From assembly GCA_963796275.1 (NCBI GenBank), contig CAWCKY010000006.1, positions 1,760,001 to 1,824,000 of the forward strand: a DNA stretch of 64,000 nucleotides, read 5' to 3'. Both the position numbers and the translations under genes were made by a program. Every line of letters begins with the position of its first letter. The stretch's first letter is position 1. This document shows, piece by piece, positions 34,905 to 58,814 of the stretch. The stretch comes from an uncultured Acidobacteriota bacterium. Its GTDB lineage: Bacteria > Acidobacteriota > Blastocatellia > RBC074. Under the pieces are notes generated by a model, which saw nothing but the letters and a program-made list of their open reading frames with translations, was not told the DNA's origin and ran no database searches.

Positions 34905-35489
34905 ATGAATATGCCCTCTTCGCATGAAGTCACTCAACTGCTTGTAGCTTGGAGTGACGGAGATCAAGCTGCCCTTGAGCGATTAACCCCGCTGGTCTAC
35001 AGAGAATTGCATCGGCTGGCTGAAGGATATATGCATCGAGAGCGTCCAGGCCATCTCCTGCAAACCACGGCACTTGTAAATGAAGCCTACCTGCGCCTGA
35101 TCAATTGGAAGAATGTGTGCTGGCAGAACCGCGCCCATTTCTTCGGAGTGGCAGCGCAGATGATGCGTCGTATTCTGGTGGATTTCGCTCGCGCTCGTCA
35201 GCAGGACAAGCACGGCGGCGCGCTGCGCCAGGTCTCGTTTGATGAAGCGGATGTGGCGCCAGTCGAGCAGAGTGCTGAGTTCATTGCCCTCGACGAGGCG
35301 CTCGAGCGATTGGCCGCCATTGATCCGCGCAGAAGCCGGATAGTGGAGCTGCGCTTTTTCGGCGGATTGAGTGAAGAGGAAACAGCCGTAGTGCTCAAGG
35401 TCTCGCCACGCACGGTGCGGCGGGAGTGGAGTTTGGCCCGGGCCTGGCTCCATCGCGAGTTGAGGCAGGGGAGGGACAATGAAGCCTGA
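34905..35489 (+). CDS. ECF sigma-70 factor (TIGR02999-like, kinase-associated)
   Basis: '[13 protein letters not shown]...[14 protein letters not shown]...[19 protein letters not shown]...VELRFFGGL'. Confidence 0.93.
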
Positions 35490-38478
35490 GCGATGGAAGC
35501 AAATCGAGAAACTCTATTACGCCGCCTTGGAGCTTGACGTGAGCCGGCGCGCAGCCTTCCTCGATCAAGCTTGCGCCGGCGACGAGGGGCTGCGCAGAGA
35601 AATCGCGTCGCTCCTGGCATCGGACGAGCAGGCGGGAAGCTTCCTGGCCGCGCCCGCCGTAGAGGTAGCGGCCCGTAGTATAGCCGCGGCGCCAATCTCA
35701 TCACCCATTGGGCGGCGGATCGGCCAATATCAAGTGGAGTCTCTGTTGGGCGTGGGCGGAATGGGCGAGGTCTACCAGGCGCGCGACGTCAGGCTCGACC
35801 GCACAGTAGCTCTGAAAATTCTACCTATCGAGTTCGCGAAGGACGAAAAGCGGATGTGTCGATTCATTCGCGAGGCGAAAGCCGCCTCGGCGCTCAATCA
35901 TCCACATGTTGCGACGATCTATGAAATCGGCGAGTCCGGAGGGCGGAACTTCATTGCCATGGAGTATGTCGAAGGGCAGACGCTCGCGGCCAGAATCAAC
36001 GGCCATCCGCTTAAGGTGGGTGAGCTCGTGGAGTTCGGAAGCCAGATTGCCGACGCACTGGATGAAGCGCATAGCAAGAGAATCATCCATCGTGATATTA
36101 AACCGACGAATGTCATGCTCAACTCACGCGGGCAGGTAAAGGTTCTCGACTTCGGATTGGCGAAAATCCATCAACCTCCTGAACAGTCTATCGATAAGAA
36201 CGGTATCACACTCGCGAAGACCGAGCCGGGCGTAGTGATGGGGACCTTGCCGTATCTGAGTCCGGAGCAAGCACTGGGACGTGATGTGGATCACCGTACC
36301 GACATCTTCAGTCTGGGGGTGATGCTTTATCAAATGGCGACTGGACGCTTGCCCTGGTCCGGAAAGAATTCAAGCGAATTGCTGGACCTGATCCTGCACG
36401 CGCAGCCGGAAGCGATAGCTCGATTCAATCACGACGCGCCCCCTGAGTTTGAGCAGATTGTGCGAAAATGTTTGGAGAAGGAGCGAGAGGCTCGCTACCA
36501 AACTATCAAAGAATTCCTGAACGATCTTGAGCCTATCAGAAGCAGCCTCGTCAGACCACACGCGACTGCGAACAATAAAGGCATAGGCACCAGAATCAAC
36601 CGCCATAAGATCGGTTGGGCCCTTGCTCTGATCGCGTTGATCCTGACGACTGTCGTTGCGATTTACCTGCCTTCTGTGATTCGAGATCGATCCCAAGCCG
36701 TCCAACCGGCGATCCGCCCATTGCGACGCTTGACCTCAGACCCGGGCTTGCAAAGCGAACCAACCTGGTCGCCCAAAAGTGACTTCATCGCTTACAGTTC
36801 CAACCGGAGCGGCAACTTCGACATTTGGGTTCAGCCAATCAGTGGGGGCGATCCGGTACAGGTGACCCACTCTCCCGAACACGACTGGCAGCCCGACTGG
36901 TCGCCTGACGGCAGTCAGATCGTTTTCCGCTCGGAGCGGGATGGCGGTGGGCTGTTCGTGGTTCCTGCTTTTGGTGGACACGAAAGCAAAATCTTCGCTT
37001 TCGGCTCTTACCCGCGATGGTCGCCTGACGGCACCAGGATTTTGTTCGGAGTTACGGGTTTTCAGCCCAGAGTGTATGTCGGAACTCTCGATGGCCTGCC
37101 GCCACACGAGGTTCAGCCTGAGTTTCTCTCTGACTTTGTCAACCTTTATGCATTTTTTTGGCATCCTGACGGCCAGCAGATCTCTCTTTATGGAGAGAAG
37201 AGCATGGATGAATGGAGTCACTGGTTAGCCCCACTGACTGGCGGACCGCCCAAAAAGTCCGAACTGGTTACTGAGGTCGAAAAGCAATTTCGGGAACACC
37301 AACTGCAGAGAGTAACCCGTGGCAGGTGGGCGCCTTCGGGGCGAAGCATCTACTTCTCCACCGTTTCGCTGGGCCTAAGAGACATCTGGAAGGTAACGGT
37401 TGACCCACAGACCTCGAGATGGATTGCAGGTCCCGAGAGGCTCTCGGTCGGCTTGGGAAGCGATACCGACTTTGCGCTTTCAGCAGACGGCAAACGACTG
37501 GCTTTCACCATGCGGGTCGAGACGATTCGTGCCTGGTCTTTCCCGTTCGATGCCGATGCCGGCAGAATCAAAGGTCAAGGCCAGCCTATCACCTCAACCG
37601 GGATGATTCCCACAGAAATCAACCTGACGCCAGACAGCAAGAAGATCGCCTTTAATGCAAATCGTCCCGGATCGCGAAAGTCCGAACTCTGGGAAAAGTC
37701 ATTGGATGATGGTCGAGAAACGTTATTGGCCACTCGGACTCAATCTACCAAGACCTTTTGTAGCCCGAGTTGGTCGCGCGATGGGGCACGCATCGCCTAC
37801 TTATTTTACGATCCAGCTACTCAGAAGAACGGTCCTCAAATTCTGACAAAACCTGCAGGTGGCGGTGACGAGCAGATCATTGCTTCAGGCGCAAACGATC
37901 TCCCCTCGGACTGGACCGCTGACGGGAAATGGATTCTCGCGACCACTGACCGCAAATCCCCGGGCAGGTATGGCTCAATCTGCCTTTATCCATTATCGGC
38001 TGCCCCTCACGCAGAAACGGAAATGCGCGTGATTACTTCCAGCCAGAAGTATCAACTTTTTAAGGCACGATTCTCTCCCGATGGTAAGTGGATTTGTTTT
38101 CTGGAGCAAAAGTCAGGTGCCGACTCCGCCATCTATGTCATGTCAGCGTCTGGCGGCGAGTGGACACCTATCACCGATGGCCAATCCTGGGATGATAAGC
38201 CGCAGTGGTCTCCCGACGGCAAGACCATCTATTTCGTTTCTTGCCACACCAGATTTTCTTGGCAAACCGGCATTTTCAACGTGTGGGGCCGCCGGTTCGA
38301 TCCGGCAATTGGAAAACCGGTAGGAGAACCCTTCCGCGTGACTAGCTTTGAAAGCCCGAGCCGAATGATCTATCCCAATACAACCCTCATGGATGTTGGG
38401 CTCGCTGCGGATCGTCTCGTCCTGCCGATCATGGAAGTATCAGGAAGCATTTGGATTTTGGAGAACGTAGATCGCTAA
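35479..38478 (+). CDS. membrane Ser/Thr protein kinase with periplasmic PD40/TolB-like propellers
   Basis: 'GVGGMGEVY', 'VALK', 'HRDIKPTN', 'DFGLAK', 'YLSPEQ', a TM segment and WSPDG repeats. Overlaps the sigma gene. Confidence 0.93.
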
Positions 38479-40700: not shown

Positions 40701-41132
40701 TCATTTGGCGCCCCTCTCTTTCGTTTGCTTTGGGCCGATGCTGTGAATGTAGTTGATGATTTGCCATATCTGCTTCTCCTTGAGCCTCTCTCGGTAAGCC
40801 AGCATGTCAGCCGACACGCCATCGCGGATGACGACGAAGATTTCGCCGTCGGTAGAGCCGTAATCCCAGACGTCGTCGGTCAGGTCGGACGGCTCGCCGC
40901 CTGAGAGCGCCAGTCCGCCGTCGCCCTTGCCGTTCGGGCCGTGACACGCGGCGCAATAGCGCTGGTAGAGCTCCTTTCCGGCTTCAATGGATTCAGCGTT
41001 TTGCGGCTCGGGATTCTTAAGCTTCTGCGCTTCGAGATTGCGGCGCTGCTCTTGCGCCTGAAGCGTCGGCCAAAGTCCGGTCATGACGAGTGCGAGCACC
41101 AGCCAAATGATCCTGTTATTCCTGAGGGACAT
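40701..41132 (-). CDS. periplasmic class I cytochrome c
   Basis: Signal peptide, CAACH heme motif and distal Met 'ADMLAY'. Confidence 0.9.
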
Positions 41133-41619
41133 CGAAATTCTCCATCAGATATTCGGGGTGTCGCTCTCGCAGGTGCAGAAACAGTTCATGCGCCAGATTG
41201 ACGATGCGTTTGACCCCATACGCGTATTGATTGTTTTTGACTTTGAGCGAAACTGAAACAACGCCTCCCTGGTTCGAGCAGGAAACCTCGGCTCGTTTGC
41301 GATCGATCCGCCGGTGTTCTGGCAACTCCTTGTCGTGCCGCCGCTCGATGAAGCTCTTCAATTCGGCGTAGAGGGCGGATTTCGCCGGAATGTTGGGCAG
41401 AAGCCGGTTGAATCGCAACTCGTGTTTCTCTGTGTTCACTCTCAATTCCATCAGGTGATTGACCGCCCAAACGAATTGGAAGCGCTTGTTTTTGGTTTCA
41501 CTGAAGCCGCGAAAGACGCCACGGTCAGCGTAAGCCTGTAAGCTTTCTCTGACCACGGTCAGTGGTTTATTTATTTGTTCTCGGGCGACTGCCATAGAAT
41601 TGGTAGATGGATTCGCCAA
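41116..41619 (-). CDS. conserved hypothetical protein
   Basis: Well-formed ORF overlapping the cytochrome c start; no motif recognised. Confidence 0.65.
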
Positions 41620-41851: not shown

Positions 41852-43801
41852 TCAATGGTTGTACGACATGCAGCCCGGCTCGATCGTGCCCAAGAAGCCC
41901 GGCGGGTACTGCTGATTGGACCAGAATTCCTTCTTCGCCTGGCAGTTGATGAGCGCAGGCCGGCTCTCTTTGACAGCGATCTGGTAGCAGCGTTCGAGCG
42001 CGACGCGGAAATCTTCCGGTCTGGTAACGTACTCGCCGTGCGCGCCGAGGCCTTCGGCGACCTTGTCGTAACGCACGTTCTCCTGGAAAAGGTGGAGACT
42101 CAACGTCACAGGGTTGCGGCTGTTACCCGTCCACGTGCCCCAGGCGTTGTTGTTGTATACGATGACAATGATCGGCATTCGGTATTTCGAAGCGGTTTCG
42201 AGTTCCATGATCGTGTAGCCCACGCCGGCGTCGCCCGTGACGCAGATCACCGGGGAGCCTTTGTACGCAGCCTGCACGCCGACGCCGTTCTGCACCGCCA
42301 CCGCAGCGCCGATGGCGTAACCGACGTCGGGCCCGATCGCGCCGTATTGATACGCCCCATTCAGAATCTGGCCCGGGCGATAGCCGCGCAACCAGCGGCG
42401 CACGTATCTGGCGATGCCATATCCGCCGGAGACGAAGGTAGTCTGCTCTTTGGGCAGTTTGCCATGGTACATAAAATCGGTCAGCTCTTTGGCGATCACC
42501 GCCGGGTGGACAGCATCGGTATAGCTCAGGCCCTTCGCGTAGAATGATTCATTTTCGTCTTCGAACTTCTTCCGCGCCGCTGCAATCTCGGCCACCCACG
42601 CTTCGCGTTTCATCGCGGGCATGGCGTCGGCGAGCGACTCGATCGCGGCCTTTTCGCAACTGACCATGCCGACGTCTATCGGCACGTTGCGACCGATGTC
42701 TTCGGGGCATGGGTCGATGCGGATGTATTTCGCATCCGGCCCGAAGGCGAATTCGCCTACCTTCGGCATGCAATACTGGCCGACCAGCACGACGACGTCG
42801 GCGCTGGGGAGCGCGCCAGGCGCGGCGTTGGCCGAAAGCGGACCCGCGTCCGAGAATTGCCCCTTCATCGCGCCTGATTCGACGACGGGAATCTGCGCCT
42901 TCTCGGCCAGTCTCTTCAACGCGTCCCAGGCGCGGCTGTAAAAAACGCCGTTGCTCGAGACGATGATCGGGCGCTGGGCGTTTTTGAGCAGCTCGACCGC
43001 CGCCGCGACGTCCTTCGGCCCCGGATGCGGCTTGGCGGTCGTGCGGTATTTGGCCTTGTCGTAGTAGCCCTCGAGGTCGCCAGGTTTCTCGAAGCGCGCG
43101 CGCGTAACTTCCGCCGGGAAATCGAGGTGCGTGGGGCGCGGGACGCCCGATCGCAACTGCCGAAACGCGTAAGCGCCGTACTCGTGAATGCGCTTCGGAG
43201 TGATCAATCGTTTGCCGTATTTCTTCAGCCCTTCGGTGGTCGGCTGCTGATAGGCCAACTGGATGCCTGCCTCTGTATCTTCATTGGCGACCGTCATGTT
43301 GCTGGCGAGCACGAGCACCGGCGAGCGCGCCGCGTTGGCTGCGGCGATGGCGTTGATCATGTCTGTGAAGCCCGGCCCTTCCGTGCCTGACGCGGCCGCG
43401 ATTTCCCCAGTCACCCGACAGAAGCCGTCGGCGGCGTGGCACATCGCGCCTTCGTGGCGACCGGAGTAGGTCGGAATGCCTTCGAGCGCGATGGCGTTGA
43501 CGATGGAATAATTGCCGGGGCAGGAGAAGAGCGCGGCGAGTCCCTCTTCCTTGCAGAGTCGCGCGAAGACCTGCGCCCCAGTCATCGGGAAGGCGGCCTT
43601 TACCGGAGCGGTTTTGGCGGCCTGGGCGAATTCGTCTGGCACCTTGATCGGTTTGTTTTCAGCAGTGTCGGCGGCGTTCGCCCTGTTTCCGTCAAAGGCG
43701 ATAACCGTGGTCATTCCGGCCCCGGCCACCGCTTTGCTTATGAATTTTCTCCTGGAAACGTCAGTTTTTTTCACCCTATTTTTGTCGTCTATTTTTGCCA
43801 T
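41852..43801 (-). CDS. thiamine-diphosphate-dependent enzyme (ALS/HACL/benzaldehyde-lyase superfamily) with twin-arginine signal
   Basis: 'SRRKFI' + hydrophobic stretch + ANA, then 'MTGAQ', '[12 protein letters not shown]' and the ThDP motif 'GDAGVGY...VYNN'. Confidence 0.9.
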
Positions 43802-43956
43802 AGCCTCTCCTCCGATTTGCCCATTTTGCCTCTTTCGATGGATGGATGAGCGGGTTTACAAGCCGCCCTCGCGCAATCTTGTACCGCGCCCTGGCGTTGG
43901 AATACAAATTTAGTGTTTGAGCAAAAAATTAAAAAGATGGTAATGATGGTAAAGAA

Positions 43957-43980
43957 TACTTGCCTACCGGCCGGTAAGTA
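43957..43980. promoter_or_regulatory. palindromic operator, copy 1 (TetR-like)
   Basis: TACTTGCCTACCGGCCGGTAAGTA between divergent genes; its reverse complement matches 44963-44983. Confidence 0.65.
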
Positions 43981-44032
43981 TAGTGAAATTGGCGGCGTCT
44001 GGCAATATCTCTCCCAAATCTGAAGCGAACAG

Positions 44033-44893
44033 ATGCGAAAACTTTTCCCGTTCTCCCTTTTGCTGTTATTGATTCCGATGGTTCCGCCATCAACCGGCGG
44101 AATGACGCAGGAAACATCGAACGCCACAAGCTTCCATCATGTCCACCTGAATTCGACCGATCCGTCGAAGGCGATTGATTTCTACACGCGGACATTCGAC
44201 GTAACGAAGAAGATGCGGCTCGCCGGCTTTGACGGGATTCAGAGCGAGAAGATCTATCTACTCTTCAACAAGGTGGACATTCCTCCAGCGACCTCACCCG
44301 ACAGCGCCATCTGGCATTTCGGGTGGGGAAGCACAACGATGGAAGCCGATTACCAGAAGCATCTCTCGCATGGCGTGACGTTTCATACGCCGATAACCAG
44401 GCTTGGGTCGGGACTGTTGTTCGCTTATATGAAAGCGCCGGATGGAGCGTTGGCAGAGATCAACACATCGAACACCCGCGCCTTCATTCACATCCATTTG
44501 TACAGTGACGCGCCGCTCTGCGCCGCCGAATGGTATATCAAACATCTCGGCGCGAGCAGTCGCTTGCAGCGCAGCGGCCCGTGTGAAGTCCCATTCGCCG
44601 CGCCCAGCGAGCCGCTCGGAGTTATTCGGTCGCCGGCGACTACGGTTCGTTTCGGCGAGATCAGTTTGATAATCTACCCGCGCCAGCGCCCCAGCCCTCT
44701 GGTCAGCCCGCGCGGCCACGTCGTTGATCATATCGCGTTCGGCGTCACTGATTTGGTAGACGCGCTCGATCGGTTGCGGAAATCGAGAGTGAAAGTGTTG
44801 GAAGAAGCGCGCTTGTTTGGCGACGGTAAAACTCGCGCGGCGATGATCGAAGGACCGGATGCGATTGCAATCGAACTCGTTGAAATGAAGTGA
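44033..44893 (+). CDS. secreted VOC/glyoxalase-fold protein (two modules)
   Basis: Signal peptide; 'FHHVHLNS', 'WHFGW', 'HIHL', 'DHIAF' and 'GPDAIAIELVE'. Confidence 0.85.
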   Translation: MRKLFPFSLLLLLIPMVPPSTGGMTQETSNATSFHHVHLNSTDPSKAIDFYTRTFDVTKKMRLAGFDGIQSEKIYLLFNKVDIPPATSPDSAIWHFGWGSTTMEADYQKHLSHGVTFHTPITRLGSGLLFAYMKAPDGALAEINTSNTRAFIHIHLYSDAPLCAAEWYIKHLGASSRLQRSGPCEVPFAAPSEPLGVIRSPATTVRFGEISLIIYPRQRPSPLVSPRGHVVDHIAFGVTDLVDALDRLRKSRVKVLEEARLFGDGKTRAAMIEGPDAIAIELVEMK

Positions 44894-45164: not shown

Positions 45165-46319
45165 ATGCTACGCAACCTTATTTTGCTCGTCATTACATTT
45201 GTTTTTGCGTTAAAAGGTTCCGTTGACACCGCTCGCGTCGGATTGTTAGCCATTGCCGTCGCGCTGTCGTTTGCGGGAACGGCGAACGCCCAGGAAAAAC
45301 GCTTCCAGTTTCCCGGCACGACCTGCACAGCCGGCGCTCCATACTTGCACTGTCCCGACCGTGAGTGCTCAGGGGCCACGGTAATCAATCAGGGAAACGT
45401 GGTCGAGATGAAGACGCGCCGCACTTACTTCCTTGATTATCCGTGCGATATGAAGAAGGGCGAGAAGGTCACTTTCATAATGAGTCTGCACGGCGGCGGC
45501 TCATACGGAAACTGGCAGCGACATTATTTCCCGCTGCTGGATTACGTGGACAAATATCGCCTGGTTGTCGCCACTCCGAACTCACCGACGCGAGCGTGGG
45601 CGCAAGCTGACGACGAGTACTTGCAGAACATTGTCAACTATGTCATCGAACAAGTTGGCAAGGAAAATATCAATGCCTTCTGGCTGGTTGGACATTCGCA
45701 GGGCGGCATGACTTCCAACCGGCTCCTGCGAACGGACTTCTTCAAGGACAGAGTGGATGGGTGGCTCAGCCTCTCCGGCGGTCGATTGGGCGGAAATCCG
45801 GGACGCAGCTCGACTTTCGCTCCCACCGGCGCCGCAGCGCCTGGCGGCGCAAGTTCAGGAGCGCCCGGCGGTAACAACCCGAGGGCGTCAGCTATGGCGG
45901 CATTGCGCGAGCTTCCCACCGCGGACTTCTCTCACATTTTCGAGACAGGCCAGCGCGAAGTGGACGAGAAGGGCGTGCCAGAGACATCCGATTGGGCCAA
46001 GAAATATTCTTGCGGCCCGCGACTCGCGCCGAGGGAGGTCGAAGACGTCAAGGCAGGCTACGTCTATGACAGCAACCGCTTGAATTTGTTGCGTCCGGGT
46101 TGGGGACTCCTGCCAGCGCCCGGCAGGGCGCAGGTCCTCGCATATCCCGACTGCAAGGACGGCCGTGTGGTCGCCGACGTCGTTCGCCTCGATAAGGGAC
46201 ACACCGAAGGGCTCGAGCCGAAAGTTACCGAAGAGCTGATCAAGTTGATGCTCTCAGGCCGGGGCGGTAAGCTTCAACAAATCACTACCACGTCCGCGTC
46301 GACTCAGGAAAAACGCTGA
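45165..46319 (+). CDS. secreted alpha/beta hydrolase (PHB-depolymerase/esterase-like)
   Basis: 'SLHGGGS', nucleophile 'GHSQGG', and 'KGHTEG'. Confidence 0.85.
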
Positions 46320-46417
46320 TCGAAATCATAGGGAAAGTTTATCGCCGGCTTCGCAACGGGTCTGATCCCTAAGCCAACGACAAATGAAGTTTGTCGGATA
46401 TTTCAGAGAAAAGAAAC

Positions 46418-47689
46418 ATGCCAACAATCAAGCGTTCAATTCTGCTTCCCTTAATTCTGACCGTTTGCGTGGCTGCGCAGGTCATTGTCCAGTCCCAGGC
46501 CGAAATCATTCCGGACTTGATCTACGGCCACAAAGGCGGTCTTGCAATGACATTCGATGCGCTCAAGCCGCAGGCGAACGCCAACGGCGCCGCAAAATCC
46601 AAAAACGATTACAGCAAGGCCGATACATGGTTATGTCGCCCGGGCAGAGATGACGCTTGCTCAGCTGACTTAACGACAACCATCGTCGCCGCCAACGGTA
46701 AGTTGACAGAGGAGAAATGGAAGGCCAATCCGAACGCGCCGATTGATTGTTTTTACGTCTATCCGACGATCTCCAACGATCCGACCCCGAACAGCGATAT
46801 GAGCGCCGGGCCGGAAGAGCGCCGCGTCATTCAGCATCAGTTCGCGCGCTTCGGATCGCAATGCCGTCCGTACGCGCCGCTCTATCGCCAGGTGACGTTG
46901 ACGACGCTGCGCGCCAATCTGTCGGGGAAGCCGATGGCGGTTGATCGCGTGCTCGCTTACTCCGACGTGCTGGACGCCTGGAAATATTATCTCGAACACG
47001 ACAATCGAGGGCGCGGCGTCGTTCTCATAGGCCATTCGCAAGGCTCCAGCGTTTTGATCCAGCTCATCAAGAATGAAATTGACGGCAAGCCCGTCCAGGA
47101 TCGCATCGTTTCCGCGTTGATATTGGGATTGAATGTCGCCGTGCCGATTGGCAAAGATGTCGGCGGCGCTTTTCAAAAGATGCCGTTGTGTCGCGCGGCG
47201 AATCAGACCGGATGCGTGATCTCCTACGTCACGTTTCGCGAAAACTCGCCGCCGCCCACCAACTCATTCTTCGGCCGCCCGCCAGCCGATGGGATGGTCG
47301 CGGCATGCGCGAATCCGGCGGCGTTGGGTGGCGGCAGCGGCGAATTGCGTGCCTATCTGGCGGCGGGCAGGGGCGCGGTTACCTCATCTGCTGCGCCAAA
47401 ACCCTGGGTGACCCCCGAACGACCGATCAGGACACCGTTTGTGAGCGTGCCGGGATTGCTCTCGGCCAAATGTGTGTCCGACGATCACGGTTCATACCTT
47501 GCGCTGAAAGTTCACGGCGATCCCGCCGATCCGCGCACTGACGACATCGCCGGCGATGTCGTGACGAACGGGCAGGCGCAAGCGAATTGGGGATTGCACC
47601 TGATTGATGTGCAGGCGACGATTGGCAACCTGGTGGATATTGTCGGCCTGCAGGGAAAGACTTATCAGGCAAAAAACAAGAAGAAATAG
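46418..47689 (+). CDS. DUF3089 alpha/beta hydrolase, secreted (chimeric N-terminus)
   Basis: 'WLCRPG', 'IDCFYVYPT', 'APLYRQ', 'GHSQG', 'WGLHLID'. Confidence 0.85.
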   Translation: MPTIKRSILLPLILTVCVAAQVIVQSQAEIIPDLIYGHKGGLAMTFDALKPQANANGAAKSKNDYSKADTWLCRPGRDDACSADLTTTIVAANGKLTEEKWKANPNAPIDCFYVYPTISNDPTPNSDMSAGPEERRVIQHQFARFGSQCRPYAPLYRQVTLTTLRANLSGKPMAVDRVLAYSDVLDAWKYYLEHDNRGRGVVLIGHSQGSSVLIQLIKNEIDGKPVQDRIVSALILGLNVAVPIGKDVGGAFQKMPLCRAANQTGCVISYVTFRENSPPPTNSFFGRPPADGMVAACANPAALGGGSGELRAYLAAGRGAVTSSAAPKPWVTPERPIRTPFVSVPGLLSAKCVSDDHGSYLALKVHGDPADPRTDDIAGDVVTNGQAQANWGLHLIDVQATIGNLVDIVGLQGKTYQAKNKKK

Positions 47690-47804
47690 GAGTAATCGCC
47701 GCTAGCGGCTTCGAGCAGGCATTAAGGGTCGCGAGCGCGTTCCGGACAACAGCTCTGTACTTGAAGAGATTTACCGTGCTAAGTCGCGCGGTCTCAAAAT
47801 TCCT

Positions 47805-47843
47805 CTCCATCCAAGCTCGCCCAGATGCTCGCTATGGATGGAG
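47805..47843. repeat. 39-bp palindromic element, copy 2 (IS200/IS605 end-like)
   Basis: CTCCATCCAAGCTCGCCCAGATGCTCGCTATGGATGGAG. Confidence 0.75.
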
Positions 47844-47860
47844 TTCCTTTTGAGGTTTAG

Positions 47861-50008
47861 ATGAAGGTGGCTCTCTCAAACCGCCAAAACACGATTATAG
47901 CCTTCGCCGTTCTTGGCGTTCTTGCGTATTTCAGCGGTGTCGTGGGATTTTCCCAAGCGGCCACGCGGCTGGAGCTCAGGACACTGTCGTCGCGACCCGA
48001 CCTGGTCAGTGGTGGCGACGCGCTGGTCGAAATCAAAACTCCTGCAGGCGCGCAACTGAACCAGCTCAGACTGACGCTCAACGGCAAGGATGTCACTAAC
48101 CGGTTGAGGCTCGATGCGGCCTCGGGCGGCTTTCGCGGATTGATCGGCGGAATGGTTGTAGGAGAAAACACGCTGATTGCGAAGATCAAATCGCCAAAAC
48201 CTGCTCAGGCGAGCCTGAAAGTCACGAACTATCCGATCACGGGGCCGATTCTTTCGGGGCCGCATCTGACTCCTTACGAATGCCGCACAGTCGAATCGGG
48301 CCTGGGCGAGGCGCTCGACGCCGCCTGTTCAGCCAAACAGAAGATCGAATATTTCTATCGCGCGTCGAACGACACTTTCAAACCGCTCGCAAATCCGACC
48401 GGGGCGCGACCGTCCGATCTGATCAACACGACAACCAACGACGGAAAGACCGTACCCTACATCGTGCGCGTCGATTCGGGCACGATCAATCGCAGCATCT
48501 ACCGCATCGCGATCCTCGACGAGCCGAACACCGAGACGTCGCCCATAAACGGGGATCAGGTCGAATGGAGGCCCGGGCCGGGTTGGAATCGTAAATTGGC
48601 CGTGAGCTTCGGCGGCGGCGCGGGCACGCAATACAATCAGGGCGTCAACCAGGGGACCGCCGCGCTGAATCACCTCTACCTGTCGCGCGGCTTCGCTTTC
48701 ATGGTCTCGACCGAACTGGTCAATCAGCAGCACGGCAATGCGGTGTTGCAGGGCGAGGCGCTGATGATGCTCAAAGAGTATTTCATTGAGCGCTACGGCC
48801 TGCCGGAATGGACTGTTGGCAATGGCGGGTCGGGCGGAGCGATCCAGCAGTTGGTGATCACGCAAATCTATCCGGGCTTGCTCGACGGCTTGCAGCCGAC
48901 GCTTTCGTTTCCGGACTCATCGCTTCACACATCGGATTCAGGGCTGTTACAAAATTTCTGGCGGAAGGCCGATCCGTCTGTCTGGACCGACGCTAAGAAA
49001 ACGGCGGTCGAAGGCTTTACCAAAGGGACCACCGCCGCCTGGGAACGGTCATTCGTACCGGTGCTGACCGCAACCAACGCGCGCGGATGCGCGATGAATG
49101 ACGCCAGCAAGATTTATGATCCTGTAAAAAATCCCAAGGGCGCCCGCTGTACGATGCAGGAAATGCGCGCAAATATCTACGGACGCGATTTGATGACCGG
49201 CTTCGCGCGCAAGCCTCAGGACAATGTCGGATTGCAATACGGATTGGCGGCGTTGAATGACGGCGCGATCAGCGTGGACGAATTCCTGGAGCTGAACGAG
49301 AAAATCGGCGGCAATGATATTGACGGGAACTTCATTCCGCAGCGCGCCGTGGGAGACCCGATCGCGCTGCGGGCGATTTACGCGAGTGGTCTTATGAATT
49401 CGGGCGGCGGCGGGTTGGCCAACGTTCCGATCCTTCACGCGCGGCCTTACACCGACGCGATAGGCGACATCCATGACCGTCATCGCGACTTGACGATCCG
49501 AGCCCGCCTGGAACGGACCAACGGGCGCTCGGATAATCAGGTGATCTGGACGGGGCCGCCGCGCGGGCTGAATCAAACCGATCAGAATCGAGGCGTAAAC
49601 CTGGCAGCGCTCTCACTCGACACTATGAACGAATGGCTCGACGCCATCGCGGCCGATCCGGCGCCGCTCTCGACAGACAAGATCGTGCGCCACAAACCGG
49701 CGGAGGCCGTTGACGCCTGCTGGGATACTGAAGGCAATAAGATCGTCGAGAAGGCCCGTTTCGATGGCAAGGGAAAGTGCAACACGCTTTATCCGGCGCA
49801 CAGCGAGCCGCGGCTGGTGGCCGGAGCGCCGCTCACGAATGACATCGTCAAATGCCAGTTGAAGCCGATTAACTTCGCCGATTACAGGGTAACTTTCACC
49901 ACCGCGCAGAAGGCGCGTATGAAGGCCGCCTTCCCGGCTGGCGTCTGCGATTTCGGCAAGCCAGGCGTGGGCCAAGGGCCGCTTAAAGGGACGTATCAGC
50001 GGTATTGA
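47861..50008 (+). CDS. DUF6351 family (tannase/feruloyl-esterase-like) secreted protein
   Basis: 'LSSRPDLVSGGDALVE', 'NYPITGPILSGP', 'GGSGGAIQQ', 'DNVGLQYGL', 'KCQLKP', 'FPAGVCD'. Confidence 0.85.
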   Translation: MKVALSNRQNTIIAFAVLGVLAYFSGVVGFSQAATRLELRTLSSRPDLVSGGDALVEIKTPAGAQLNQLRLTLNGKDVTNRLRLDAASGGFRGLIGGMVVGENTLIAKIKSPKPAQASLKVTNYPITGPILSGPHLTPYECRTVESGLGEALDAACSAKQKIEYFYRASNDTFKPLANPTGARPSDLINTTTNDGKTVPYIVRVDSGTINRSIYRIAILDEPNTETSPINGDQVEWRPGPGWNRKLAVSFGGGAGTQYNQGVNQGTAALNHLYLSRGFAFMVSTELVNQQHGNAVLQGEALMMLKEYFIERYGLPEWTVGNGGSGGAIQQLVITQIYPGLLDGLQPTLSFPDSSLHTSDSGLLQNFWRKADPSVWTDAKKTAVEGFTKGTTAAWERSFVPVLTATNARGCAMNDASKIYDPVKNPKGARCTMQEMRANIYGRDLMTGFARKPQDNVGLQYGLAALNDGAISVDEFLELNEKIGGNDIDGNFIPQRAVGDPIALRAIYASGLMNSGGGGLANVPILHARPYTDAIGDIHDRHRDLTIRARLERTNGRSDNQVIWTGPPRGLNQTDQNRGVNLAALSLDTMNEWLDAIAADPAPLSTDKIVRHKPAEAVDACWDTEGNKIVEKARFDGKGKCNTLYPAHSEPRLVAGAPLTNDIVKCQLKPINFADYRVTFTTAQKARMKAAFPAGVCDFGKPGVGQGPLKGTYQRY

Positions 50009-50229
50009 ACGAACAATTACCTGTACATCTATCTCAAGGAGGGCGGTTTGGCGAATCGCCGCTCGAAGGCGCGATCAAAAGCAAGGAGGTCAAGTTCTCC
50101 GTAAAGCTGAACGCGCAAGGGCAGGAATTCTTACTCGAATACGCCGGGGCTGTCGAGGGCGATACGATGAAGGGCAAGGTAAAATTCGGGGATAGAGGCG
50201 AGGCGGACTTCTCCGGTAAGAAAGAATAA
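50005..50229 (+). pseudogene. 3' fragment of a small secreted beta-protein
   Basis: 'LEYAGAVEGDTMKGKVKFG' without a start or signal peptide. Confidence 0.4.
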
Positions 50230-50251
50230 TTATTTGCATCAGGAGACGTTT

Positions 50252-51364
50252 ATGTCATGGCATCCGCGTTTATGTCAGGTCGGCGTACTCGCCGCATTGA
50301 CGTTCGCGTCAGGTCTGGCTGGCGCCGCGGCGTCGGCCCAGATCAAGACCGACATCATCGAAAAGTATCGCGCGGAATTGCAAAAGCAAGCCGCCGATCC
50401 CGAGATGAAGCGCGAGCGCGGCACACAGCCCCAGGATTGGATTTTCGCGCTGCCCGAAGGCGTCAGGTCGCGGCAGATCACATTCTACAGCGATGGGACA
50501 CCCTGTTACGGAAGAATCTTCTTCCCGAAAACTTTCAACACGCGGGGCAGGTGGCCGGCGGTCGTGGTAGGGCATGGCATCAACGCGCAGGTTGTCGGCA
50601 TCGAGAAATACGCGGCGCGCTTCGCTGAACGTGGACTTGTGGCGATGGCGATTGACTATCGCACCTACGGCTACAGCGGCGGCGACGTCTTGCTGCTCGA
50701 ATCGGACACGACCACCGACGAACGCGCGGTGTGGGAGAAGGACGCGCGCATTCAAATCAAGCGGACGAACCTGAACAATTTTCGAGAGACCGAAGATTTT
50801 CGCGCGGCCATCTCTTACATTCAGACCGAGCCTGGCGTCGATCCTGAGCGGATCGGCGTCTGGGGGTCGTCGAACGGCGCGAGCGTGGCATTGATGGTGG
50901 CCGCTCAGGACGCCCGCGTCATAGCGGTAGTCGCGCAAGTGGGCGCGGTCGGCGGACTCAACGCGAGTGGCCCGGTCGCGATCCCGCCACGAATGGTCGA
51001 AGAAGGCATCAGGCGCGCTCGCACGGGCCAGGGCTCTGAAGTTGACGGCGGCTTCTCTTTTAAGAGCAAAATTGATATGTGGAGCGGCCAGGTCAACCGT
51101 GAGTTCCGTCCGGGAGCCGCGCTCGACCGCATCCCTGAAACAACGAAGATTCTCTGGATTCCTGTTGAGAAGGACGAGTTGTTGCCGCCGCGCGGCCCCA
51201 GCGGGCCTTACGCGGGATCGAAGGCGTTTGTGGGGACATCGCAGGTCGCGGAGATTCCGTATCTGACGCACTTTCAGATTTATTCTTTCGCCGGGTTCGA
51301 GGTGAGTTCAAATCTGGCGGCGGACTGGTTCCTGACGTATCTGGGAAGGCGCGTGACAGAGTAG
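50252..51364 (+). CDS. secreted alpha/beta hydrolase (CocE/dienelactone-hydrolase-like)
   Basis: 'IDYRTYGYSGG', 'VDPERIGVWGSSNGA', 'LTHFQIY'. Confidence 0.85.
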   Translation: MSWHPRLCQVGVLAALTFASGLAGAAASAQIKTDIIEKYRAELQKQAADPEMKRERGTQPQDWIFALPEGVRSRQITFYSDGTPCYGRIFFPKTFNTRGRWPAVVVGHGINAQVVGIEKYAARFAERGLVAMAIDYRTYGYSGGDVLLLESDTTTDERAVWEKDARIQIKRTNLNNFRETEDFRAAISYIQTEPGVDPERIGVWGSSNGASVALMVAAQDARVIAVVAQVGAVGGLNASGPVAIPPRMVEEGIRRARTGQGSEVDGGFSFKSKIDMWSGQVNREFRPGAALDRIPETTKILWIPVEKDELLPPRGPSGPYAGSKAFVGTSQVAEIPYLTHFQIYSFAGFEVSSNLAADWFLTYLGRRVTE

Positions 51365-51469
51365 TTTCCCGATCCGTCGTTCGCCTGGATTTAGAGCGAT
51401 TGGAAGATGAAGAACCGGACCGCATCCGCTATAAGCGGTTAAAGGAGTCAACGAAGAGATCGACGAAGC

Positions 51470-52459
51470 ATGAGACAGGAATTGATCATACTTATAACTA
51501 TGATTGTTCTGACAGGCCCATTGTCTCCGCGCGCCGGTTCGCAAACTCACGGGCAAACAATGCGGTACCGGGCTATGGCGACGATTGAGTCACTGCCGGA
51601 TGGCGTCGCCGCAAAAGATGTTCGTTTCTACAGCGAAGGTATCGAGTGCCATGGAAAGATTTTTACGCCGAAAAACTTCTCGGCCGAGGGCAAAGCGCCT
51701 GCGGTGGCGCTCGCGCCCGACTGGGGCGAGACGGCCGCGTCAATCGAGAAATACGCCGCGCATTTCGCCTCGCGCGGACTGGTGGCGATGGTCATTGATT
51801 ATCGCGGATGGGGAAGGAGCGGCGGTTTCCCCCAAACGTTGGATGCAGTCAAGACTGATGACCGACTTCGCTTTTCGCAGATGACCGCGAGAGTGCGCAT
51901 TCATCGCAAGCGTCTCATCCCGCGGGAGCAGATTCTGGACATTCGCAACGCCCTCTATTACCTGCAGGGCGAGCCTGGCGTCGATCGCGCGCGTGTCGGC
52001 GTGTGGGGCGCCGGCATGGCGGGCGGGCATATGATCGTCATCGCCGCAACCGACGCCCGTGTCAATGCCGTAGTCGCCCAGACGCCGATCATCGAGGGCA
52101 AGGACGCGCCGCGGAAAGCTTACGCTCCGACGGGCGAGTTGCTGCTTGCCGAACAAAGGCGCGCGCGCGTTGGTTATTTGCCCGGCGCCGGCGCTTCGGT
52201 CGATGTCGAGACCAGGCTCGCGCTGGCCGAGTATCGTCCGTTCTGGTATGTCGAACAGATACCGCAGAAGACGGCTGCGCTGTTTGTCGTCGCCGAGGAA
52301 GGACCCAGAACGAATATCGCCATCGCCGCGTCGAAGTTGCTCAAAGGGCCGACAGACGTGGCACGCGTCCCCGGCGTAAGGCGCATGCGGATTGACGCAG
52401 GCCAAACGTTCAATACGGCTGCTAATGCGGCAGCCGAATGGTTTTTGAAGCGCCTGTGA
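51470..52459 (+). CDS. alpha/beta hydrolase paralog with degenerate catalytic motif
   Basis: '[11 protein letters not shown]'; '[16 protein letters not shown]' with the nucleophile Ser replaced by Gly. Confidence 0.8.
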
Positions 52460-52544: not shown

Positions 52545-53873
52545 ATGAAAGGCGCCATCAGATTGACCATGATCGCCGCCGCGCTCGCGCTGGCGTTTTT
52601 CCTTGCGCCGCGACTCAGCCGCGGAGCCGAAAAGACGGCCGGTGTAACATTCGCCAAGGACGTCGCGCCGGTTCTTCAGAAAAACTGCGTGGTCTGTCAT
52701 CGGCCGGGCGAGGTCGCGCCGATGTCATTTACGAACTACAAAGAGGTTCGGCCCTGGGCAAAGGCCATCCGCGAAAAGGTGGTGACACGCGCGATGCCGC
52801 CCTGGTTCGCCGATCCCGCCCACGGCGAATTCTCTAACGATCCGCGGCTCTCGCAAAAGGAGATTGACACAATTGTCGCCTGGGTCGATGGCGGCGCGAA
52901 GGAAGGCGATCTGAAAGACTTGCCGCCATCTCCAAAATATACCGAGGGCTGGCAGATCGGCAAACCTGACGTCACATTCTCGATGCCCATCGAATACAGC
53001 GTGCCCGCCGAGGGCGTAATCCCATACAAATATTTCGCCGTGCCGACCAACTTCACCGAGGACAAGTACGTGCAATTGGCCGAGATTCGCCAGGGCAATC
53101 GCCGGATCGTGCATCACGTGATCGTTGATGTGCGTTATCCGGAACATGGCAAACTGCCGGAGCCTGGCGAGATCCCGCCCAATGAACTCCTCTCCGTGCG
53201 ACGCGGCGGGGGCCAGCGAGGCGAACGTCCCGCCGATTCGGATGGGCGTTTGGTCGGATGGGCGCCCGGCGAAGCCCCGCTGGCTCTGCGCGCCGGTCAG
53301 GCGAAACTGATCAAAAAAGGCTCAATGCTCATATTCCAGATTCACTATGTCACGACCGGCGAAGCTGGAACCGATCGCACCAGCATCGGCATGATCTTCT
53401 CGAAAGACCCGGTCGAAAAGCGCGTCATTACCGCAGGCGCTATCCAAGCCAATTTCGTGATCCCGCCCGGCGATCCCAACTATGAAGTCAAGTCAGAATT
53501 CGCTTTCAAGGAGGACAGCCACATTGACAGCTTGCATCCGCACATGCACCTGCGCGGCAAGGATTTCAAATACACTCTCGTTTATCCGGACGGGACGTCG
53601 AAGGTGTTGCTGTCAGTGCCGCGCTGGGATTTCGGCTGGCAGATGACATATGTCTTCAAGGAGGAGGTCGCCGCGCCGAAGGGAAGCAAGCTTGTCTGCG
53701 TGGCCCATTACGACAACTCGCTCAACAACAAGTTCAACCCCGACCCGACGAATGAAGTTCGTTGGGGGGCGCAGACCTGGGAAGAGATGATGATCGGTTA
53801 TCTCGATTACACTCTCGACAAACAGGACTTGCGAATGTCGCGACCGCAGGCCGCAAGCACCAGCGGCCGATAA
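52545..53873 (+). CDS. heme c + copper type II (PHM/DBH-like) monooxygenase fusion
   Basis: Signal peptide, CVVCH, 'MPPW', CuH 'VHHV'/'QIHY', CuM 'PHMHLRG'/'EEMM'. Confidence 0.85.
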
Positions 53874-53970: not shown

Positions 53971-55414
53971 ATGAAACGTTTATTCATCGTTCTGCTCATA
54001 ATGCTGACTGCGGCTGCGGCAGTGAGCAGGAAGCGGAACGACGCCGCGAGTGTGACTTTCAGCAAAGACGTCGCGCCGATCATCTTCAACAAGTGCGCCA
54101 ACTGCCATCGCTCTGGTGAGGTCGCGCCGATGCCGCTCACCTCATACGCCGAAGCTGCGCCCGTGGAGCAAAGCCATCCGCGAAGAGGTCATCGAACGCT
54201 CGATGCCGCCCTGGTTCGCCGATCCGCACACCTCGACTCTCAAATTCGGCAACGACCGCAGGCTCTCGCAAAAAGAGATCGATACCATCGTCGCCTGGGT
54301 CGACGCCGGGGCGCCGAAAGGCGATGACAAAGACCTCCCGCCGTTTCCGAAATACACTCCCGGCTGGACGTTCGGCGAGCCTGATATGGTGATCGAGATG
54401 CCGGTTGATTTCGAGGTTCCGGCGGAAGGCGAACTGCCGATGCAGAATTTTTACGCGCCGGTTCCCTTTACGGAAGAACGATGGGTCGAAAAGGTCGAAC
54501 TGCGTCCGGGCAATCCGGCGGTCGTGCATCATTCAATCGCCAACGTGGTCAAACTGCCGGAAGGAACAAAGATCGTGGACGGCAAGGCTGTCCGCGCGGA
54601 TGGCGCGGCCGCCGGTAGGCTCAACAGCCAATCGGCGCGCGAGACCGGAGGATTGAGCGAAGGCGGATCGCGTGAAGTGTTCTTGAGCCAGGATTCGTTC
54701 ACACGCGCCGGCGCGTTCAAGCTCGTCGGACAGGCTCCGGGCAAGGGATTCGAGCAGCATTACCCCGGCACCGCCAAGCGCATCCTGCCGGGGATGTACG
54801 TACAGTTCAATATGCATTACCAGCCGAGCGGACGTTCTGAAAAAGACCGCTCGCGCCTCGGTCTCTGGTTCGCCAAAAAACCAGTGACGCACGAAGTCCT
54901 CACGAAGGGCGTCAGCGACACGATCTACATTGGTGGCAAGGAACTGAGTGAAACCCGCACGATCAACGGCAAGGAAGTCAAAGTGCGAGGCCGCATTCCC
55001 AACATCCCGCCGAACGTTGACAACTGGGAGATCGGCGGCGAAGTGACGATCAAGGATGCGATCACGCTCTACGCCTTCGCGCCGCACATGCACCTGCGCG
55101 GCAAAGACATCAAATACACGCTCGTCTGGCCCGACGGTCGCCGGCAGGTGCTGCTCGACGTGCCGAAGTTCGACTTCAACTGGCAACTCCATTACGAGCT
55201 TGCCGAACCGCTGAAGATTCCCGCAGGCAGTAAACTGATCTCCCTCGCCCACTACGATAACTCGATCAAGAACCGCTACAACCCGGCGCCCGACAAAGAA
55301 GTATTCTGGAGCGAGCAGAGCTGGGATGAGATGTTCATCCCGTGGTTCGAGTACACGGTGGACAGTAAAGTTTTGACGAAACCCGGCGTCACTCAAAGCG
55401 CGAGCAAACAATAA
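53971..55414 (+). pseudogene. second heme c-copper monooxygenase, +1 frameshift near 54155 (possibly sequencing error)
   Basis: CANCH in the first frame. Removing one C in GAAG(C)TGCGCCCG restores 'EVRPW'. Then 'VHHS', 'NMHY', 'PHMHLRG', 'DEMF'. Confidence 0.8.
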
Positions 55415-56418: not shown

Positions 56419-56543
56419 AACCATAGACAATTCGGGTCGGTACCGCGGGCGGTAGCGAGAATAACTCCCTGAGGCGCATTTTCGCCGAAGTCATACTCGT
56501 TACCGCTCGCGGCGCTGCCTCGGTGTCCGATAGAGCAAATCCA

Positions 56544-58457: not shown

Positions 58458-58814
58458 TATTCATCATCGGGGTCTGAACGAACAGCGGTGCCGCGAAGCG
58501 ATTCAGGCTTATTACGCCTCGATCACGTCGCGCCACGAATCGCACATTTGAGTTACTGGATATTTATCCAACACGTCGCTCGCCGGAGACGGTTTAGGAT
58601 AGTTCGAGCAACTCGGCGCACAGGCGTAATCGCCCAGACGAGAGCCAGCCGTTCTTTGCCGTCTGAGCATTACTGGTAGAACAATCACCACGAACCAATA
58701 CTGACGCCGCATTTCTGGCGGTTCCATTAACAGCCTACGAGCGAAGGGACGAACAAGTATCCAAAGATGAGAGCTCGTTCGACCTTGCTTGCGATAAATT
58801 ATGGAGGCCCATCA

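Follow-up and report, generated by a model that had tools for sequence, protein, structure and literature searches.

Organization of the locus

The window analysed here, a stretch of 64,000 nucleotides (positions 1,760,001 to 1,824,000 of contig CAWCKY010000006.1, assembly GCA_963796275.1), comes from an uncultured Acidobacteriota bacterium of the class Blastocatellia and carries on its minus strand a gene for an enzyme that depends on thiamine diphosphate (ThDP), with an N-terminal leader of the twin-arginine translocation (Tat) type. A reading of the letters alone (the sequence-only reading) had pointed to this enzyme, to its export signal and to a co-oriented cytochrome c as a possible partner; a third conserved gene, encoding a small protein here called p167, lies between the two and was absent from that reading. 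The source genome holds one copy of the enzyme family. The three genes and their parts are as follows.

43801 to 41852, minus strand: ThDP enzyme, 649 amino acids, the sole open reading frame (ORF) at these coordinates
43804–43813, minus strand: purine-rich Shine–Dalgarno-like run GGAGGAGAGG, directly 5' of the ATG at 43801, read from the sequence
43673–43801, minus strand: predicted Tat signal peptide, residues 1–43, with probable cleavage after A41-N-A43 from the AxA motif
43733–43756, minus strand: twin-arginine motif S16-R-R-K-F-I-S-K23, read from the translation
43586–43672, minus strand: linker of the mature protein, residues 44–72 (29 residues), with a conserved P-I-[KR]-[VI]-P-[DE]-E-F stretch
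41852–43585, minus strand: ThDP enzyme core, residues 73–649 plus stop, with Pyr, middle and PP domains, from Pfam, alignment and model
41855–41935, minus strand: family-specific C-terminal tail, residues 623–649, where the outgroup has mostly gaps
41116–41619, minus strand: p167, following the enzyme gene; longest ORF 167 amino acids
40701–41132, minus strand: monohaem class-I cytochrome c, 143 amino acids, with a CAACH motif and a Sec-type signal (PF13442, 4.3e-14; PF00034, 7.1e-12)

The cytochrome c gene starts within the end of the p167 gene, overlapping it by 17 nt. For p167 itself the start is probably M9 at 41595, giving 159 amino acids, because most homologues are annotated at 153–160 amino acids. 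The sequence-only reading had also considered that the enzyme might truly begin at an internal methionine, M73 ('MTGAQ'), which is the first residue of the TPP_enzyme_N match. A Shine–Dalgarno run was looked for upstream of M73 (gccgccttcccgATG) and none was seen; translation from M73 is rejected because such a run precedes M1 only and because the leader is conserved and under selection, as described below.

A conserved Tat leader defines the enzyme family

The leader begins with a polar, basic n-region (to D14, followed by S16-RRKFISK23), continues with an h-region of 13 residues (A24–F36) and ends in a c-region that holds R40 and A41-N42-A43, after which the protein reads A44-D45. Its conservation was assessed in the query and its 120 best homologues, which share 79–90% identity and derive from Blastocatellia/Acidobacteria metagenome bins, using the strict Tat pattern [ST]RR.[FLIVM][LIVMF] within the first 60 residues. 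The pattern was matched in 111 of these 121 sequences; of the ten misses, two read ARRRFI, four read SGRK, lacking one arginine, and four are annotated with a shortened N-terminus. The arginine pair itself is retained in 113 of the 121. Both the pair and the hydrophobic stretch persist in family members at 49–61% identity with complete N-termini, with motifs such as TRRGFF (P0122), SRRKFI (P0123), SRRRFV (P0125), SRRDFV and SRRSFL, and the h-region of this protein and of most homologues leads into an AxA-type site.

A codon comparison with 12 loci gave ratios of nonsynonymous to synonymous substitution (dN/dS) of 0.14–0.73 for leader codons 1–44 (computable in nine of the 12, with three saturated), 0.11–0.53 for the linker and 0.04–0.12 for the mature part of the enzyme. 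The leader ratio lies below 1, which shows the leader to be translated and subject to purifying selection, though looser than in the mature part; signal peptides are usually under looser selection. In the AlphaFold model, residues 1–54 have a predicted local distance difference test score (pLDDT) below 50 and a confident fold follows; within the linker, a short helix at residues 56–62 is modelled at pLDDT 50–67. The source genome encodes the matching machinery, namely TatC (229.4 bits) and two TatA/B/E proteins (63.7 and 60.1 bits), with one of the two TatA/B/E genes adjoining tatC. Taken together, the twin-arginine signal proposed in the sequence-only reading is borne out in its motif, h-region and AxA site, and the conservation of RR, which that reading had suggested examining, holds among close homologues and down to 49% identity. 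The enzyme thus carries a conserved, family-defining Tat leader, predicted to direct export of the folded protein.

One close sub-branch (P0017, P0049, P0064, P0105 and the gene at L004:5462-7438) has a linker reading '...ATLSPASFPMTGAQ', and in four of its members RR has become GR. The L004 gene is a second copy in the bin that also contains locus L001; it has no p167 or cytochrome c gene nearby and is flanked by acyl-CoA-dehydrogenase-like and PhyH genes. The Tat signal may be decaying where the p167 and cytochrome c partners are absent.

The ThDP core and its closest relatives

All three Pfam domains of the ThDP fold score above their cut-offs: PF02776 (TPP_enzyme_N, residues 73–175, 86.2 bits), PF00205 (TPP_enzyme_M, residues 265–389, 81.3 bits) and PF02775 (TPP_enzyme_C, residues 467–620, 87.5 bits). 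The catalytic motifs R115-H116-E117 and G523-D524-A525...N550-N551-N552 are intact. In a core alignment of 23 family rows and 27 outgroup rows, E117 is kept in 22 of the 23 and all 27, respectively, and D524 in all 50, in agreement with the sequence-only reading, which had called the catalytic Glu and the GD...NN motif intact. The AlphaFold model has a pLDDT of 85 and its best fold matches are 2-hydroxyacyl-coenzyme A (CoA) lyase (HACL) and oxalyl-CoA decarboxylase (OXC).

By sequence, the closest solved structures are 2-hydroxyacyl-CoA lyases and synthases (HACL and HACS) and OXC (PDB 8vzk, 8vzj, 6xn8, 7pt1-4, 2q27 and 2c31), with E-values of 1.4e-45 to 5e-40. BbmA (1e-40) and benzaldehyde lyase (BAL)/formolase (PDB 2ag0, 2uz1, 3iae and 4qq8; 1e-36 to 2.4e-35) come next, and the flavin adenine dinucleotide (FAD) enzymes rank much later, with glyoxylate carboligase at 1e-27 and pyruvate oxidase at 1e-20. 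The fold search ranks the relatives in the same order. The window enzyme shares with HACL and OXC the three-domain ThDP fold (6xn8, E 3.8e-41, TM-scores 0.72/0.86), the activating Glu, the GD...NN motif and a conserved Gln (Q181, equivalent to Q128 of AcHACL); it differs from them in an identity of 24–27% and in the addition of the Tat leader, the linker, the family C-terminal tail and the conserved partner genes. The resemblance to BAL noted in the sequence-only reading stands in that BAL is a relative of the same branch (E ~1e-35; Foldseek 3.5e-37), CoA-free and FAD-free, which shows that the scaffold can act on free aldehydes and acyloins. BAL as the nearest relative is rejected: HACL, HACS and OXC are closer (1e-44 to 1e-45), and BAL is cytoplasmic and without partner proteins.

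None of these assignments extends to a curated family. No NCBIfam model reaches its cut-off for the enzyme (best 212.5 bits against 571), and the equivalog cut-offs for OXC and HACL are missed (NF006721, 188.6 against 557; TIGR03254, 175.3 against 739.4; NF058623, 154.3 against 600). The 27 nearest leaderless representatives, themselves uncharacterised, likewise reach no NCBIfam cut-off, the best model being NF004516 at no more than 533.9 bits against 587. In an exhaustive search of 1.84 billion cluster representatives, full-length family members were found at 59%, 52% and 49% identity (857, 699 and 605 bits), whereas the next full-length proteins outside the family score at most 228 bits at no more than 34% identity and start directly at the ThDP fold, with no leader. 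A quick maximum-likelihood tree, built with the leaders removed, gathers the family members on the same side of a branch that has a Shimodaira–Hasegawa-like approximate likelihood ratio test (SH-aLRT) value of 100 and a stem length of 1.86 changes per site. By these sequence measures, the enzyme family is sharply bounded.

Within that boundary, 171 positions are kept in at least 21 of the 23 family rows and show the same residue in at most four of the 27 outgroup rows. Many are tyrosines or tryptophans that lie in or close to elements of the active site; the positions listed in this set include 98, 184, 461, 484, 486, 549, 557, 570, 574 and 649, the last being the conserved C-terminal residue, His649. 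In the C-terminal tail, F636, G638 and H649 are kept in 21–22 of the 23 rows. After the first Gly-rich turn, the outgroup has mostly His (18/27) and the enzyme family has Tyr98 (23/23); this position may correspond to the catalytic His29 of BAL, and the conserved Q181 may be the equivalent of BAL Gln113. Residues Q342, P364 and D368, equivalent to residues of the FAD pocket, are invariant in the family (23/23), a pattern of conservation by which the pocket matters, its occupant not being indicated.

The CoA site is largely dismantled

The CoA contacts of AcHACL comprise Q255, R273, S274, R362, R417 and K564, alongside the catalytic E493, according to PMC8760513. These residues were mapped by hand through a phmmer alignment to 7pt2_A (chain number = native + 11), a mapping that at 24% identity may be off by one residue; K564 lies outside the alignment, so five CoA contacts were mapped. 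Three are replaced in the window enzyme (Q255 by G310, R273 by P328 and S274 by G329), one shows a conservative change (R362 to K412) and one is kept (R417 as R468). The catalytic E493 aligns with W557. All the mapped equivalents are conserved within the enzyme family. With three of the five contacts replaced, the CoA site is therefore largely, not completely, dismantled. The CoA independence proposed in the sequence-only reading thus gains from these replacements, and from a groove predicted to be filled by p167 (see below), and is tempered by the retained R468 and the conservative K412.

p167 and cytochrome c are conserved partners

Among 61 related genome loci, eight were set aside for too little downstream DNA; p167 and cytochrome c both lie downstream of the enzyme gene in 51 of the 53 that could be evaluated. 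The cytochrome c that the sequence-only reading had singled out is thus a conserved neighbour and not a chance one. A survey of 201 sampled genomes of the class, in which co-occurrence was scored by comparing two tables, found p167 in 65 and the enzyme family in 63, with both present in 62 of the 66 carrier genomes. Of the three p167-only genomes, two are fragments, and in the single enzyme-only genome the gene lies at a contig end. Carriers are confined to two taxonomic families, in which they make up 35 of 55 and 29 of 49 genomes. A second paralogous clade, at 55–57% identity and present in some genomes (L065), has the order p167–cytochrome c–enzyme, and its enzyme bears a Tat leader of its own, STRRKFLL. 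That the three genes stay together in both clades, in spite of the different gene order, argues more strongly than any other finding that their products act jointly.

In both clades p167 lacks a signal peptide, and named sources call it a 'hypothetical protein'. A Pfam/NCBIfam search placed it in no family, and it is not TorD/DmsD-like. Its conserved motifs include ENFDVPQE, YADRG and PEHRR. In fold, it comes closest to type III secretion chaperones and YbjN-like proteins, a weak match with scores in the commonly seen range, and the nearest named set in the Atlas is DUF2299. Compared with class-I type III chaperones and YbjN-like proteins of known structure (SigE, 1k3s; SicP, 1jyo; ExsC, 3kxy; AmyR, 5fr7), p167 shows 8–13% identity and no sequence similarity; it also differs from the type III chaperones in lacking a type III context and in having as its predicted client a folded domain, not an extended peptide. 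No fused or longer form of p167 was scored among 265 candidates, which is weak evidence.

A predicted complex of the enzyme and p167

Structure prediction with the full-length enzyme and p167 gave a complex score of 0.75 (0.75, 0.83 and 0.73 in three runs), compared with 0.00 for the best of three controls. Of 157 solved complexes, 116 score at least this high, as do 2 of 215 mismatched pairs; these counts hold only roughly here because custom alignments were used. The runs share at least 70% of contacts, and the pLDDT of p167 is at least 82. On the enzyme side, the predicted interface comprises residues 276-277, 328, 332-333, 347-356, 374, 405, 461, 557-559, 636-640 and 648; it is confined to residues 276-648, with none in 1-72, although residues not named here are uncertain and a leader contact is possible. 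On the p167 side, it involves the YADRG and PEHRR motifs and the last helices.

Both surfaces carry marks of conservation. Of the 21 invariant columns of p167, nine coincide with its 27 interface residues, where 3.4 would be expected (hypergeometric p = 0.0016), and the enzyme residues involved are conserved in the family and differ from those of the outgroup (P328, E405, Y461, where the outgroup has Gly, W557, G559 and F636-L-G-T639). In this mapping, p167 is predicted to sit over the former CoA-nucleotide groove, beside the active-site loop, because P328 replaces R273 of AcHACL and W557 replaces E493, and both residues lie in the interface. The interface regions differ between the two clades, the enzyme tail having FLGTI in one clade where the other has NAMNP, and the C-termini of p167 differing as well; these differences on both sides fit co-evolution, without testing it. 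An idea that the p167 C-terminus (...FDVPQE) might serve as a catalytic arm is weakened because p167 of clade 2 ends differently, in ...FDLDPDKM. The predicted complex is compatible with a permanent, co-exported subunit and with a cytoplasmic chaperone, and cannot tell the two apart.

Genomic neighbourhood

Further features in and around the module are listed below.

43977–44005, minus strand: promoter-like site TTGCCA-17-TATACT, a 10/12 consensus match only, about 175 nt 5' of the enzyme start codon
41656–41841, minus strand: ORF of 61 amino acids in the 232-nt spacer between the enzyme and p167 genes; a probable truncated remnant, not part of the module
44033–44893, plus strand: two-domain protein of the vicinal oxygen chelate (VOC)/glyoxalase fold with a signal (PF00903), divergent from the enzyme gene
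45165–52459, plus strand: five signal-bearing hydrolases, between the VOC gene and the cytochrome/Cu-monooxygenase-like genes
52545–53873 and 54116–55414, plus strand: tandem paralogues with a haem-binding CxxCH N-terminus and a weak Cu2_monoox_C match (PHM/DBH-like; 22–23 bits, at cut-off)
56523–58457, plus strand: pyrroloquinoline quinone (PQQ)-dependent dehydrogenase with an N-terminal cytochrome c domain (quinohaemoprotein type)

The evidence for the promoter is weak because two such sites were found against 1.3 expected in shuffled sequence. Terminator-like sites, sought between the enzyme gene and p167, showed no excess (5 against 5.3 in shuffles).

Residues 30–49 of the spacer ORF match 13 of 20 N-terminal residues of a 79-amino-acid protein, in no Pfam family, that is inserted at the same place in relatives (L011:8140-8379 and L031:2469-2708); the ORF is probably what remains of a small gene inserted there. 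The spacer is, in relatives, a hot spot for the insertion of toxin–antitoxin pairs (Fic/Doc with a small antitoxin, HigB with a helix-turn-helix protein, and a PIN-like pair; L010, L013, L023, L052, L053, L041, L055 and L006) and also for small unknown genes. In 14 of 62 neighbourhoods, a gene for a signal-less luciferase-like oxidoreductase of about 280 amino acids (PF00296, 179 bits) stands between the enzyme and p167 genes (among others in L003, L010, L011, L013, L015, L017, L019, L022, L028, L035 and L047); it does not occur in the spacer of the window.

Three kinds of neighbour recur near the module. A secreted VOC-fold protein is frequent without being constant (18/62 neighbourhoods), cytochrome-c/Cu-monooxygenase-like proteins occur in 27/62, and a PQQ dehydrogenase with a cytochrome c domain adjoins the module in 20/62. 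Relatives of the Cu2_monoox_C paralogues lie directly downstream of the module in those 27, and some are fused to an AhpC/redoxin domain. The window carries all three, separated by the run of secreted hydrolases, which comprises an alpha/beta hydrolase, a DUF3089 protein, a tannase-like DUF6351 protein (807 bits) and two DLH/AXE1/PETase-like esterases. The region resembles an island of enzymes for periplasmic catabolism and redox reactions, which fits an extracytoplasmic role and names no substrate; with the PQQ dehydrogenase, a periplasmic route from alcohol to aldehyde to acid is conceivable.

Elsewhere in the window, a gene for an extracytoplasmic function (ECF)-type sigma factor (34905–35489, plus strand) overlaps the following gene for a 999-amino-acid protein (35479–38478, plus strand), in which a Ser/Thr-kinase-like region at the N-terminus and TolB/PD40-like repeats at the C-terminus are recognisable by eye. 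A siderophore synthetase of the IucA/IucC family with an FhuF-like C-terminal domain (278 and 146 bits; 62010–63854, minus strand) is adjoined by a TonB-dependent-type outer-membrane barrel (58767–61226).

Proposed mechanism and comparison with known systems

With slightly more confidence than doubt, we read these genes as a three-gene module in which a Tat-exported, periplasmic ThDP enzyme works with p167 and cytochrome c in a reaction that is probably oxidative. Sequence and comparative data give good support to the predicted export and to the association of the three proteins; the redox step is an inference from the conserved cytochrome c gene only. In the proposed sequence of events, the 649-residue protein would fold in the cytoplasm, bind ThDP-Mg2+ and dimerise, as in its superfamily; dimerisation is proposed because ThDP sites in the superfamily lie at subunit interfaces. 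p167 is predicted to dock onto the folded enzyme at the middle domain, at the family-specific C-terminal tail and at the 557–559 loop next to the active site. Tat would then export the folded, cofactor-loaded enzyme by way of the SRRKFISK leader, which, judging from sequence and conservation, would be cut after A41-N-A43. In the periplasm, E117 would activate ThDP and a small carbonyl compound (a 2-oxoacid or an aldehyde) would add to C2 of the cofactor; the Sec-exported cytochrome c of the module could take two electrons, one at a time, from the resulting enamine, the acyl-ThDP would be hydrolysed to the acid, and the cytochrome c would pass the electrons to respiration. Several findings weigh against the redox step: the closest relatives of the enzyme are non-redox, no FAD is indicated for it, and two of the 53 evaluable loci (L004 and L034) have neither partner.

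A more specific version, possible but distinctly tentative, would make the enzyme the representative of a new, FAD-free class of periplasmic ThDP respiratory dehydrogenases that oxidise small aldehydes or 2-oxoacids, deliver electrons directly to their own cytochrome c and are exported by Tat in complex with a signal-less, chaperone-shaped subunit seated in the ancestral CoA groove. In such a dehydrogenase, the family-specific tyrosines and tryptophan surrounding the active site (Y98, Y184, Y461, Y484, Y486, Y549 and W557) may carry the electrons.

Two known systems offer partial parallels. Pyruvate oxidase/E. coli PoxB, which uses ThDP and FAD, follows an established oxidoreductase route from the enamine through an external acceptor to acyl-ThDP and is the proposed analogue of the module. 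Unlike the module, enzymes of this type depend on FAD with quinone or O2, are cytoplasmic or peripheral to the membrane, and have no Tat leader, cytochrome c partner or p167; they are also distant from the window enzyme (E 1.4e-20 over part of the protein). The TorCAD type and the fructose dehydrogenase of Gluconobacter share with the module an operon logic of a Tat-exported cofactor enzyme, a Sec-exported cytochrome c and a small third protein. In those systems, the third protein may be signal-less or signal-bearing, and p167 is signal-less; export of a signal-less subunit as a hitchhiker is an established feature of Tat redox enzymes with a cytochrome c. The module departs from the TorCAD type in its cofactor, ThDP, in that p167 is not TorD/DmsD-like, and in a predicted binding site on the mature domain and not on the leader. 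The composition of a three-subunit flavoprotein–cytochrome c dehydrogenase, with FAD and haem, is described in PMC8601194.

Alternative readings

One alternative concerns the role of p167. We slightly favour a small co-exported 'hitchhiker' subunit, itself only about an even call, over a private cytoplasmic chaperone that would cap the folded enzyme, perhaps keep it inactive, and be left behind at Tat export, a serious possibility that falls not far short of even. The lack of a signal peptide in both clades would suit a chaperone, as would the nearest folds (type III secretion chaperones and YbjN-like proteins, with DUF2299 as the nearest named set) and a predicted site that includes the loop adjacent to the active site and the C-terminal tail; release of p167 before export would also ease the problem of cargo size. 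That fold match is weak, however, and the predicted contact lies on the mature domain only, not on the leader, to which known Tat chaperones of the TorD type bind. In addition, the overlap of the p167 and cytochrome c genes in clade 1 (17 nt here) hints that p167 is made in step with a periplasmic protein.

The main rival to an oxidative module is a periplasmic, non-redox ThDP lyase, carboligase or decarboxylase, corresponding to the acyloin/C–C lyase that the sequence-only reading named beside an oxidase, with the cytochrome c serving another enzyme of the island or only holding the ThDP enzyme in its proper redox state. We consider this unlikely, even though the nearest solved relatives are lyases and decarboxylases (HACL, HACS and OXC at 1e-44 to 1e-45; BAL at ~1e-35), the enzyme shows no sign of FAD, and the window and related loci hold other possible users of a cytochrome, namely the PQQ dehydrogenase and the cytochrome-c/Cu-monooxygenase-like proteins. 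The neighbouring PQQ dehydrogenases bear a cytochrome c domain of their own, and the cytochrome c gene accompanies that of the enzyme at 51 of the 53 loci that could be evaluated and again, in a different order, in the second clade.

It is improbable that the leader remains uncleaved and anchors the N-terminus in the membrane, in the manner of Rieske proteins, holding the enzyme on the outer face of the inner membrane. Tat leaders can serve as anchors, and the linker after the leader is conserved; against this stand the AxA-type site after the h-region, here and in most homologues, and the shortness of the h-region at 13 residues. Finally, a cytoplasmic enzyme, whose extension is not a working export signal or whose translation starts at M73, would match the location of all characterised relatives and the four close homologues with SGRK and four with shorter annotated N-termini, but is very hard to reconcile with the Shine–Dalgarno run before M1 and not M73, the protein-level conservation of the leader (dN/dS below 1), the retention of RR, h-region and AxA down to 49% identity, and the Sec signal of the partner cytochrome c.

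Implications

ThDP enzymes are, in textbook terms, cytoplasmic or organellar catalysts, and to our knowledge they are known only from inside the cell. The cargo cofactors named in the main text of a 2026 Tat review are Fe-S, Mo, NiFe, flavin, F420, NADP, haem, pyridoxal phosphate (PLP) and B12; the words thiamine, ThDP and TPP (thiamine pyrophosphate) do not occur in that main text. At the level of titles and the openings of abstracts, we found no publication on a Tat-exported or periplasmic ThDP enzyme. The module suggests an unstudied enzyme system outside the cytoplasm of a soil acidobacterium.

If the proposal is right, ThDP would be an additional class of cofactor carried by Tat, and p167, whose fold has not yet been linked to Tat, would offer a test case for distinguishing hitchhiker export from a private chaperone. 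A CoA-independent relative of HACL, OXC and BAL that is stable outside the cell would also be of interest for engineering C1 and acyloin carboligations. For the bacteria themselves, carbanion chemistry on C–C bonds would take place in the periplasm as well, and soil Acidobacteria, which are abundant, would have an unrecognised way of passing electrons from small carbonyl compounds to respiration with no need to take the compounds up; about a third of the 201 sampled genomes of the class carry the module.

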